Position numbers and translations under genes: made by a program. DNA of 64,000 nucleotides from Planctomycetaceae bacterium. Its GTDB lineage: Bacteria > Planctomycetota > Planctomycetia > Pirellulales > Lacipirellulaceae. Under the pieces are notes generated by a model. It was not told the DNA's origin. It did no database searches and saw only the letters and a list, made by a program, of their open reading frames with translations. The stretch covers positions 8,299 to 72,298 of the forward strand of contig QIKP01000017.1 in assembly GCA_003233055.1 (NCBI GenBank), written 5' to 3'. Below are positions 46,835 through 50,372 of the stretch, piece after piece (position 1 is the first letter of the stretch; every line of letters starts with the position of its first letter).

Positions 46835-46918
46835 GCCGCCGTGGCGGAACTGGCAGACGCGCATGGTTCAGGTCCATGTCCACGCAAGTGGGTGGAGGTT
46901 CGAATCCTCTCGGCGGTA
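46835..46918 (+). tRNA. tRNA-Leu (CAG)
   Basis: Acceptor GCCGCCG/CGGCGGT, D-loop GGAACTGGCAGAC, anticodon arm CATGG-TTCAGGT-CCATG, long variable arm, GGTTCGAATCC; CCA not encoded. Confidence 0.96.
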
Positions 46919-48043: not shown

Positions 48044-48508
48044 CTAACGGCCCTGCGATTCCAGGACTCCCTCTGGCCGGACCACTCTCTTGGAGAGGGG
48101 ACTGGGGAGAGGGTCCGCAATGGCGATCCGCCGAGCCTTCTTGGTACTTCCCAGCTCCATGCTTTTACGGAAGGCCAAAAGCTGTTCGTCTGCTTGTAGG
48201 GCGGTAAGGAATCCTAATTCGACGACGCACTTGTCGATCGGTTTTCGGCGATCGGATTGTAGCATCAAGAGTTCCGCCAAATCGCGCTTCGTCAGCAGGC
48301 CAAGCTCGACCGCGATGTCGCCAAAACGGTCGTGGGGAAGATCCGTTTGCACGCGCAGCACACGAAACACATCCTGCGCGGCCATCCGGCCTTCTTCGAG
48401 CGCAATCAGGCCAATCGGAGGAAGTTCCTTACTCTGATGGGCGAGCGCTGCGACGAGCTGCTCTGCGGTAATCTTACGCTGCTGATGTAGAAACATTCCA
48501 AACTTCAT
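48044..48508 (-). CDS. Small protein with four tandem MshEN-like repeats (candidate c-di-GMP receptor)
   Basis: KFGMFL..RKITAEQL.AAL.HQ; PIGLIALEEGRM...V.RVL.VQ; RFGDIAVELGLLT..DL.ELL.LQ; PIDKCVVELGFLT. Confidence 0.7.
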   Translation of the reverse strand: MKFGMFLHQQRKITAEQLVAALAHQSKELPPIGLIALEEGRMAAQDVFRVLRVQTDLPHDRFGDIAVELGLLTKRDLAELLMLQSDRRKPIDKCVVELGFLTALQADEQLLAFRKSMELGSTKKARRIAIADPLPSPLSKRVVRPEGVLESQGR

Positions 48509-49002
48509 AGCGGCACTGCTCCTCTCTTGGGCCGAGAATCAATCACCCTTTCGAAAGCCCCGCCTCCCCCGGCGGTAGAAAAGAGTAGGTTGCTGGACCG
48601 GACTAGGGGATTCTAAAATGCCTCGGATGGCGGTTAATACTCAGGCGGTTCTCGGGCCCTCCGTCCCGATAGGAGCGCTTGTGCCGATTTCGACGAGGGC
48701 AACTCCCTCTTCTCGGCGACTTGGGATCGGCGGGGCACCTTGGAAATCGAATCTCGCGAGCCGAGCTGCGTAGCCCCAACCCGTATCGACGTCGACCAAA
48801 CCGGCAGGGATTCGCAGTTTCGCGTCATTTAATTCCTAAAAATGGGGCTCTCCACGTTTTAGTTGCTTGATTCATGGCTCGCCGCACGATAGCCTAAGGA
48901 GACTGGGATTTGTGGCCGCTTGCAGCCTTTACTGCTAAAGCGCCCGCGTCGCTACCTTTTGCCTTGCAAAGGGTGCCACGCGCCAAGAGGGACATGCAAT
49001 GA

Positions 49003-49041
49003 AGCCGCGGATGCCAGTGGAAGTTGGGCCGCGGTTTTTTT
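49003..49041 (+). terminator. Terminator-like hairpin in the metB-like leader (possible attenuator)
   Basis: AGCCGCGG...CCGCGGTT followed by a T run (49035-49041), about 70 nt upstream of the start. Confidence 0.6.
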
Positions 49042-49112
49042 CGTGCGCGATGGAAAATCGCCACCACCAGCGACCGGGCCACCAGAGATTATCCCCACAC
49101 GAAGGTCCTGTT

Positions 49113-50372
49113 ATGAGCCCCATTCAAGTCTCCGAAACCAACCCTGGCGATTCGAGGAAGGAGACCAGCCGTGGGGACGGCTCCTCCGCCCCCCCTGGGC
49201 ACCAGATGTCGACCCTGGCCGTTCATGCCGGGGAGTCCCGGCAGAAGCCAGGGGACTCGATTACGGACCCGATCTTCTGCGCGTCGACCTACACGTTCCG
49301 CGATACCCAAGCGATCATCGACTTCATCGAGCAAGAGCAGCCTCGCGAAGAATATGGTCGGTATGGCAACCCGGGCGAACGAGTTGCCGAACGGAAAATT
49401 GCCGCACTTGAAGGGGCCGAGGAGGCCGTTCTTTATTCCAGCGGCATGGCGGCGCTGGTCGGACTCCTGATGACGAAGCTCAGTTCGGGCGACGAGGTGA
49501 TCTTTTTCAATGAGTGTTACCATCGAAGTCGAGAATTCTGCCGGAAGCATCTTTCGCGATTCGGCGTCACCACGATCGACGTGCCGACCGGGGACTACGA
49601 CGCGATGCGTGCCGCCATCGGACCCCAAACGCGAATGCTCATTAGTGAGTCGCCCACGAACCCGCATCAAAGCGTCGTCGATATCCATCGGTTTGCGAAG
49701 CTGGGGCACGACACAGGGGTCGAAACCCTCATCGACGCCACCCTCGCGACTCCCTACAACTTGCGTCCGATCGAGGCGGGCGTCGACTACGTGCTCCACT
49801 CGGCGACCAAATACCTGGGGGGGCATAACGACCTTTTGGCCGGAGTGATTGCCGGGTCGCAAAAAATGCTCGAGCCGGTCCGCTACCTCCGAGGGATCAT
49901 GGGAGCGATCAACGGGCCGCAAAATATTTATTTGCTTCTTCGCGGCCTGAAGACTTTCGAGCTGCGAATGGCTCGCCACAACGAAAACGGCCAGCGAGTT
50001 GCTCAGTTCCTGGAAGCCCATCCCCGCGTGGAGAAGGTTTACTATCCAGGGCTCCCTTCTCACCGCGATCACGATATCGCGGTTCGCACGATGCGAGGCT
50101 ACGGAGGGCTTGTCACGTTCCTCCTGAAGGAGGCCGATTGGCGAGCGACCGCCGATGTCGTGGACGCGGTAACGATTCCCCGTATCGCTCCAAGTCTGGG
50201 GGGCGTCGAGTCGCTCATCGAGCAACCGCTGGTGATGAGTTACTATCAATGCACGCCCCAAGAACGTGCCGAATATGGGATTCCGGACAACATGATTCGT
50301 CTGTCGTGCGGGATCGAGGATTCGAGCGACTTGATCGCCGACTTAACCCAGGCTCTCGATGGCACCTCGTAA
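49113..50372 (+). CDS. metB: Cystathionine gamma-synthase-like PLP transsulfuration enzyme
   Basis: TLAVHAG, YGRYGNP, LEGAE, SSGMAA, ESPTNP, HSATKYLGGH (PLP Lys), SLGGVESL, IRLSCGIED; start uncertain (49113 or 49206). Confidence 0.85.
   Translation: MSPIQVSETNPGDSRKETSRGDGSSAPPGHQMSTLAVHAGESRQKPGDSITDPIFCASTYTFRDTQAIIDFIEQEQPREEYGRYGNPGERVAERKIAALEGAEEAVLYSSGMAALVGLLMTKLSSGDEVIFFNECYHRSREFCRKHLSRFGVTTIDVPTGDYDAMRAAIGPQTRMLISESPTNPHQSVVDIHRFAKLGHDTGVETLIDATLATPYNLRPIEAGVDYVLHSATKYLGGHNDLLAGVIAGSQKMLEPVRYLRGIMGAINGPQNIYLLLRGLKTFELRMARHNENGQRVAQFLEAHPRVEKVYYPGLPSHRDHDIAVRTMRGYGGLVTFLLKEADWRATADVVDAVTIPRIAPSLGGVESLIEQPLVMSYYQCTPQERAEYGIPDNMIRLSCGIEDSSDLIADLTQALDGTS

Follow-up and report, generated by a model that had tools for sequence, protein, structure and literature searches.

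We analysed the leader of a gene for a pyridoxal phosphate (PLP)-dependent enzyme of cysteine and methionine (Cys/Met) metabolism in a 64,000-nt stretch of DNA (hereafter the window; contig QIKP01000017.1, assembly GCA_003233055.1) from a Planctomycetaceae bacterium. The leader carries a strongly conserved 40-nt element at 48905-48944 on the forward strand. We consider it likely that this element is the aptamer of a trimmed SAM-II-type riboswitch that binds S-adenosylmethionine (SAM) and controls transcription termination, and we are confident that the leader is a cis-regulatory RNA with a SAM-II-type core. The leader is very probably SAM-related, the switch probably senses SAM and turns the gene off, and the element is probably a structurally new form of SAM-II that falls outside RF00521. 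The promoter pair, two hairpins and terminator that an initial annotation of the window had listed are all present in the sequence, and comparison with relatives puts them far beyond chance. All coordinates are positions in the window, and the key stretch was read from 48860 to 49120.

Conservation and distribution of the element

The upstream regions of the 30 best orthologous loci were chosen by protein match alone, and the window leader matched all 30 of them (nhmmer). An exact 21-mer, GATTTGTGGCCGCTTGCAGCC, occurred once in each of the 30 loci. This includes the core of the hairpin that the initial annotation had placed at 48914-48944 (hairpin 1), which was present and invariant in every one. 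The element was conserved far more tightly than the protein sequence of its enzyme, an orthologue of which was found in 61/61 related genomes at 66-85% identity. With three or fewer mismatches allowed, the 21-mer turned up in 173 of the 201 genomes sampled from the order Pirellulales (124 of the 147 high-quality ones), and a reversed control pattern gave 0-2 matches per genome. The mismatches were mostly single, T to C at one position, and the element adjoined the orthologue wherever coordinates were comparable. Two families, f14 and f19, often went without it (3/15 and 7/14 genomes, respectively). A hairpin pattern located at least 120 further places in species genomes; among the matches listed, almost all were titled Pirellulales, Pirellulaceae, Lacipirellulaceae, Thermoguttaceae or Planctomycetota.

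A covariance model (CM) built from 150 copies found a single strong copy in the window's genome, at 63.3 bits. A second match in that genome (19.2 bits, E=0.22) was judged to be chance, lying in coding-looking sequence on contig 33, ~600 nt upstream of a paralogue and on the other strand. In 150 other genomes across the phylum the model found no strong copy, and none of its 6 weak matches (21-26.5 bits) lay beside an orthologue. In a class-level sample it matched 32/35 genomes of the same order and 4/115 from other orders, only one of these strongly. The element is single-copy, linked to its gene and, as far as sampled, confined to one order. The strong out-of-order copy (G393:C7:58705-58755; L227 206-256; 64.6 bits) lies in a genome that is 66% complete with 3% contamination, and may be genuine, acquired by transfer or the result of a binning error. 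In another genome (G094; L226 604-633, reverse strand) a remnant, GGGAUUUGCGGCCG-A-GCCACCG, retains the third strand and P2a described below without any of the P2b hairpin, and may represent a copy in decay. Two retrieved loci without a 5' tail, L070 (titled Anaerolineae) and L179, were excluded as spurious from the leader counts given for the promoter, loop, hairpin 2, terminator and antiterminator, and L070 stayed in alignment A1.

Anatomy of the element

The conserved unit consists of hairpin 1 and the nine bases 5' of it, with the consensus cuGG-GAUUUG-Y-GGCCG-CUUGCAG-CC-(loop)-CUGC-U-AAA-G-W-GCC. It opens with GG (48905..48906), the residual 5' strand of a helix P1 whose proposed partner is CC at 48926-48927 (G:C in 146 and 141 of 150 aligned rows). 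The next stretch, GAUUUGU (48907..48913), contains the GAUUUG of RF00521 unchanged and is the putative counterpart of the strand that SAM-II and SAM-V lay in the major groove of P2; we call it the third strand, and it is also the 5' half of the antiterminator described below. Among the 150 rows T12 and T13 of this strand were invariant, and A11, T14 and G15 were kept in at least 90%.

Hairpin 1 itself is irregular (GGC-CG-CUU-GCAG / CUGC-UA-AAG-C-GCC). Its lower helix, P2a, pairs GGC (48914..48916) with the GCC that forms the 3' end of the aptamer (48942..48944). These 3 bp were paired in 149-150 of 150 rows and match the GGCC...GGCC of RF00521, and the middle pair becomes G.U in one relative (G055) whose 3' strand reads GUC. 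The upper helix, P2b, descends through CUUGCAG (48919..48925), invariant in the 30 protein-fetched loci and containing the RF00521 consensus CUUGCA, and ascends through CUGC-U-AAA-G-C (48932..48941), which holds the consensus GCUAAAG with a bulged U48936 and the AAA run A48937-48939. All 6/6 pairs of P2b were standard in 150/150 rows. Between the two strands lie the CC of P1 and a variable loop, UUUA, equivalent to L3 (together 48926..48931). Counted from CC, the loop between GCAG and CUGC was 4-11 nt across 169 leaders and had no conserved sequence. Two relatives carry long inserts there, 58 nt in G055 (L223) and 34 nt in G057 (L224), the latter folding into its own near-perfect stem. The variable loop length and these inserts fit an RNA hairpin, or an L3, and not a fixed DNA operator.

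The initial annotation had suggested looking for covariation upstream of planctomycete orthologues. We found it in a third P1 pair, 48904:48928 (AU 40, CG 20, UA 14, UG 14, GU 2 and GC 1 of 150), which scored above 500/500 shuffles, and in the upper stem of the terminator, and found none in P2a or P2b. A fourth P1 pair showed no enrichment (59/136 observed vs 55.2 expected, with L112, which has a one-base insertion, also excluded from this test), and an alternative P1 register, G10:C29, was rejected for want of enrichment over permuted loops. In most lineages, which have C at 48913, an 8-base palindrome, GCGGCCGC, spans the third-strand end and P2a at 48912-48919; the window has GUGGCCGC there. 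The palindrome could permit RNA dimers or recognition on DNA.

Correspondence with the SAM-II core

The RF00521 consensus, as printed by cmscan for a weak match elsewhere, is CGUGGuGAUUUGacCGGCCGGCUUGCAgCCACGUUAAAcAAgUCGCUAAAgAGGCC (in segments CGUGGu-GAUUUG-ac-CGGCCG-G-CUUGCA-gCCACG-UUAAAcAAgU-C-GCUAAAg-A-GGCC). The pieces GG, GAUUUG, GGCCG, CUUGCA, GCC, GCUAAAG and GCC occur in both this consensus and the element in the same order, and ~32 of the 40 element positions match in a by-eye comparison. The element has the third strand GAUUUG 5' of P2, a P2b of the form CUUGC/GC-U-AAA with a single bulged U, and a GC-rich P2a, as SAM-II does. As in both SAM-II and SAM-V, it stands 5' of a gene of methionine/SAM metabolism together with an expression platform.

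According to the crystal-structure study of SAM-V (PMC6061858), SAM-II and SAM-V are built on a common core. A strand leaving P1 lies in the major groove of P2, the sulfonium is ringed by U:A.U triples, the SAM adenine is paired to a bulged U, the aminoacyl end is gripped by the last A of an AAA run, and the linker and the 3' tail make up a short P2a. Every one of these parts appears to have an identical counterpart in the element. By analogy, U48909-48911 and U48920-48921 with A48937-48938 would supply the triples, U48936 would be the equivalent of SAM-V U47 as partner of the SAM adenine, A48939 would hold the aminoacyl end, and GGC 48914-48916/GCC 48942-48944 would be P2a. The initial annotation had proposed kinship to SAM-I/IV; the likeness is instead to SAM-II and SAM-V, the triple-helix pseudoknot class.

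Canonical models did not detect the element. No Rfam SAM family matched it, either in the window at the gathering threshold or in 48500-49250 and 48896-48952 at E<=10; the matches at E<=10 to the L31 leader, BcKCsr2 and Cardiovirus CRE were all far under their cut-offs and were rejected as chance. The RF00521 gathering threshold (36 bits) was not reached in the window's genome, where it scored no higher than 17.9 bits, and that at a different site, and this model exceeded its cut-off in 0/101 genomes of the order. RF01826 and RF01726 gave no match in the window's genome. RF00162 gave none there and matched in 3 control genomes, and RF01057 matched neither there nor in any control genome, which makes that negative little informative. 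We attribute the silence of the canonical models, which rest on P1 and on the order P1-L3-P2, to the loss of most of P1 and of the A-rich L3.

Promoter

The promoter-like pair reported in the initial annotation consists of a -35-like TTGATT (48867..48872) and, after a 17-nt spacer, a -10-like TAGCCT (48890..48895), both on the forward strand. The pattern TTGNNN-N17-TANNNT recurred 5' of the element in 157 of 169 related leaders, compared with 1.3% of shuffles, and 156 of these 157 had a spacer of exactly 17 nt. The -10 of relatives was mostly TAGAAT or TACAAT and ended 8-12 nt ahead of the first G of GGG. The RNA would therefore start only a few nt ahead of the element, and in the window the transcript would begin at about 48901-48904, a few nt 5' of GGG. 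A consensus scanner was silent on both the promoter and the terminator, whose loop exceeds the scanner limit of 8.

Expression platforms

A second hairpin (hairpin 2, 48945..48982, CGCGU..ACGCG) follows the aptamer directly in the window and encloses a GC-UA-CC/GG-U-GC internal loop. The initial annotation had likened this loop to the P3 loop of SAM-I/IV aptamers. The hairpin itself is a common feature, starting within 4 nt of the aptamer end in 96/113 leaders, and its sequence and length are free. Its span was 12-129 nt, and its 5' arm read CACGCG in 5 of the 113 leaders, AUCGCC in 15 and AUCGCG in 9. The internal loop was specific to the window, relatives having hairpins of other sequence in its place. 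Hairpin 2 is best described as a variable spacer hairpin; the conserved sensor would be hairpin 1 and the 9 nt before it.

Further downstream an intrinsic terminator (49003..49041) is formed by the GC-rich stem AGCCGCGG (49003-49010) / CCGCGGUU (49029-49036), an 18-nt loop and 7 T (49035-49041). A crude custom scan, with some false calls, found a terminator-like hairpin and T run in 118/169 leaders. These findings bear out the view of the initial annotation that the leader RNA acts in cis, has a promoter and an intrinsic terminator of its own, and precedes a gene of the transsulfuration type. GCCGC stood at the base of the terminator 5' arm in nearly all lineages (98 of the 118 terminator-called leaders), and it was the upper stem that covaried.

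This GCCGC and the purines that follow it are complementary to UUGYGGC, which covers the third-strand end and the first bases of P2a. In the window the complementary segment of the terminator 5' arm is GCCGCGGAUGCC (49004..49015), which pairs with 48905-48916 in the minimum free energy (MFE) fold of the nascent transcript. When leaders were folded only up to the terminator loop, the third strand paired with the terminator 5' arm in 74/98, compared with 46/490 controls (the same leaders with the first 12 nt shuffled), and 65/98 leaders had at least 7 contiguous antiterminator pairs. At full length, the MFE fold contained the terminator in 85/98 leaders.

A different platform was found in six loci (L086, L121, L124, L139, L155 and L181), with titles that include Novipirellula and Rubripirellula. 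In these lineages an AUG lies 0-3 nt after ...AAAGAGCC and the leader lacks a terminator. Five of the six genomes were searched and each had only that one copy of the element; in the 4 scorable of 5 re-fetched loci, the gene behind it was 65-68% identical to that of the window. From their layout, we read these copies as a translational version of the same switch. One aptamer joined to two expression platforms is typical riboswitch behaviour.

Proposed mechanism

As judged from sequence and thermodynamic folding, the simplest reading of the alternative pairings is an OFF switch operated by ligand-dependent docking of the 5' strand. Transcription would begin a few bases ahead of GGG. On ligand binding, P2a (GGC/GCC) would close and a P1 of 2-3 bp (GG:CC) would anchor the 5' end at the loop. 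With the 5' strand docked in this way and unable to pair with the terminator 5' arm (GCCGC...), the terminator at 49003-49041 would form, and transcription would end short of the Cys/Met PLP-enzyme gene. When no ligand is bound, the 5' strand would be free to pair with the terminator 5' arm as an antiterminator, and the gene would be read through. Where the aptamer abuts the start codon, ligand binding would instead hide the ribosome-binding region.

A bolder version of this mechanism is one we offer tentatively. At 40 nt the element may be the smallest SAM aptamer found in nature, with a new SAM-II topology in which a hairpin takes its own 5' tail as the major-groove triplex strand, P1 is dispensable and the tail serves as the antiterminator. 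If so, the docking of the first dozen transcribed nt would decide termination ~100 nt later. The P1 pseudoknot of SAM-II and SAM-V would then be accessory, and the triplex hairpin would be the functional, and perhaps the ancestral, unit.

Points against and alternative explanations

Several observations weigh against reading the element as a SAM-II-type riboswitch. The fold energy of the window's own sequence was not significant, with an MFE z-score of -0.78 for 48895-49045. P2a and P2b never vary among the 150 rows and so have no covariation support, and in loci from L062 onward their invariance was partly built in by the retrieval pattern. In P1, the G9:C29 pair was broken in 7/150 rows, and the third pair was unpaired in 59/150 and is U.U in the window itself; the column shuffles with which its covariation was compared can be beaten by mere kinship of sequences, without structure. 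For one family group, whose terminator arm is GCCGCC..., only 5 bp of antiterminator pairing are available. Other families also conserve a block, CAACUUGA, that follows hairpin 2 and precedes the terminator, and the model gives it no part to play. To these points are added the silence of the Rfam SAM families, RF00521 in the order included, and the by-eye basis of the RF00521 comparison.

The block just mentioned, (C/U)CA(A/G)CUUGA(A/C)C, directly follows hairpin 2 in loci L033-L060 and others, where the base of that hairpin is AUCGC/GCGAU. It has no clear counterpart in the window (compare 48983-49002), and neither a pairing partner nor a role was found for it.

Among other explanations, one keeps the SAM-II-type fold and changes the ligand, making the element a specificity variant for, e.g., S-adenosylhomocysteine (SAH), methionine, homocysteine or an unrelated cation. 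A shared fold need not mean a shared ligand, as illustrated by variants of the SAM-I aptamer that reject SAM and bind spermidine (PMC10853860), and the architecture of the element departs from every modelled SAM-II/V family. Its reach is also narrow, with one gene controlled per genome and neither metK nor any other SAM-cycle gene bearing a copy. The contact residues of SAM-V, however, have identical counterparts (the bulged U, the U:A.U triple partners and the AAA run), the element shares with the SAM-II consensus a C where SAM-V has A18, and a Cys/Met PLP enzyme is the classic gene context for SAM control. We regard a change of ligand as unlikely.

The extreme conservation might instead reflect a protein, with a regulator binding the invariant stretch, which contains the palindrome in most lineages, either in the leader RNA or as a DNA operator, and the SAM-II likeness a coincidence. 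Helices that are invariant and do not covary are unusual for an RNA and typical of a protein-recognised sequence, and the element lies within ~10-50 nt of the promoter. A fixed DNA operator would not tolerate a loop of 4-11 nt with inserts of 34 and 58 nt between its halves, and neither the ordered match to the SAM-II consensus, nor the conserved potential of the terminator to pair with the 5' strand, nor a translational version abutting the AUG is what this explanation would lead one to expect. We give it little credence.

The variant SAM-I/IV aptamer of the initial annotation, for which the window's hairpin 2 does supply a P3-like internal loop, is hardly tenable, as it is already contradicted by the divergence of hairpin 2 among the 113 leaders, by the lack of any SAM-I, SAM-IV or SAM-I/IV match at E<=10, and by the lack of an RF00162 match in the window's genome where three control genomes gave one; the judgement of the same annotation that this is not a standard SAM-I agrees with these searches.

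Gene and genomic context

The gene behind the leader (49113..50372, forward strand) encodes a 419-aa Cys/Met-metabolism PLP enzyme of the cystathionine gamma-synthase / methionine gamma-lyase family, assigned from the open reading frame (ORF) and NCBIfam. The ATG at 49113 is the most plausible start of the ORF, and its CGAAGG...ATGAG context is repeated within the genus. The best NCBIfam matches, with E=5e-106 to 2e-101, were to models of methionine gamma-lyase and cystathionine gamma-synthase. All lay under the curated cut-offs, and we therefore leave the exact activity general.

Upstream, a divergent gene (48044-48508, reverse strand) encodes a 154-aa protein with an MshE-type cyclic di-GMP (c-di-GMP)-binding N-terminal motif (NF053729, E=6.8e-15), and its start lies ~360 nt from the promoter of the leader. 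A tRNA gene at 46835-46918 on the forward strand (RF00005, 48.8 bits) was all that Rfam reported for the window at the gathering threshold. The genome assembly that contains the window amounts to 2.78 Mb over 79 contigs, with 90% estimated completeness, and six genomes of the same genus are 4.6-8.1 Mb. Its small size reflects either a strongly reduced genome or a generous completeness estimate.

Significance

To our knowledge, few genetic control parts are known in Planctomycetota. If our reading of the element as a trimmed SAM-II-type riboswitch is correct, Pirellulales gain a SAM riboswitch in a genome where RF00162, RF00521, RF01726, RF01826 and RF01057 are all unmatched. It would also mean that the trimming of a single helix is enough for covariance models to overlook a widely distributed relative of a well-studied class, and that nature has run an experiment on how much of the SAM-II pseudoknot binding requires. 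An element of 40 nt, the same in well over a hundred species and joined to transcriptional and translational platforms, would be an easy target for structural work and regulator engineering.

Comparison with known SAM riboswitches

SAM-I, SAM-IV and SAM-I-IV (RF00162, RF00634 and RF01725) share with the element the presumed ligand and the kind of gene controlled. Their fold, a four-way junction with a conserved P1, J1/2 and P3 loop, is unrelated; no match to them was found, and the resemblance seen in hairpin 2 is unconserved.

SAM-II long-loops (RF01726), labelled 'Bacteroidetes, marine', were accepted earlier as an extension of SAM-II that had escaped ordinary searches (Weinberg 2010, PMC2864571). 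In that extension the loops are lengthened, whereas in the element P1 and L3 are shortened, and its model gave no match. The core string GGCCGCUUGCAG did not occur in the supplementary alignments examined of the same study (PMC2864571), and its Rhodopirellula-1 motif was rejected as a relative, its alignment being unrelated in sequence. The open-access literature searched contained nothing relevant on a planctomycete SAM riboswitch or on a SAM-II/SAM-V variant like the element. Some 'novel' riboswitches proposed near homocysteine genes proved to be canonical SAM-II, as McCown et al. 2017 describe (PMC5473149). The canonical SAM-II model was run here, and the element did not reach its threshold.

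SAM-V (RF01826, metY of Pelagibacter) has the same triple-helix core logic as we propose for the element. Its short P2a can mask the ribosome-binding site (PDB 6FZ0; PMC6061858), and some Pirellulales copies likewise appear to be translational, with the AUG right after P2a. The loop inserts of G055 and G057 recall the P3 hairpin of SAM-V. The two differ in that SAM-V has a 4-bp P1 and a fixed P3, its A18 is C in the element, and RF01826 is unmatched in the genome.

SAM-II (RF00521; 'SAM_alpha', the metA motif) is the closest known class. The usual range of SAM-II is Proteobacteria or Bacteroidetes. Unlike SAM-II, the element occurs in Planctomycetota (Pirellulales), its CM score is under the reporting level, it would begin a few nt from the transcript 5' end, and its third strand would double as the antiterminator strand. 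Where SAM-II has a P1 of ~6 bp closing an H-type pseudoknot, the element has a P1 of 2-3 bp, made of two G:C pairs and a third pair that is paired in 91/150 rows. The 10-nt A-rich L3 (UUAAAcAAgU) that runs along P1 in SAM-II is replaced by a loop of 4-11 nt, whose remainder after CC is ~1-8 nt without fixed sequence. P2b of the element is longer by two pairs (A-U and G-C), and its P2a is 3 bp vs GGCC/GGCC. Most SAM-II riboswitches are transcriptional (PMC6061858), and the Pirellulales element is likewise mostly transcriptional with a terminator. Both stand upstream of methionine-pathway genes, and both have the third strand, P2a, P2b and the trailing g-A/W-G(G)CC in the same order.

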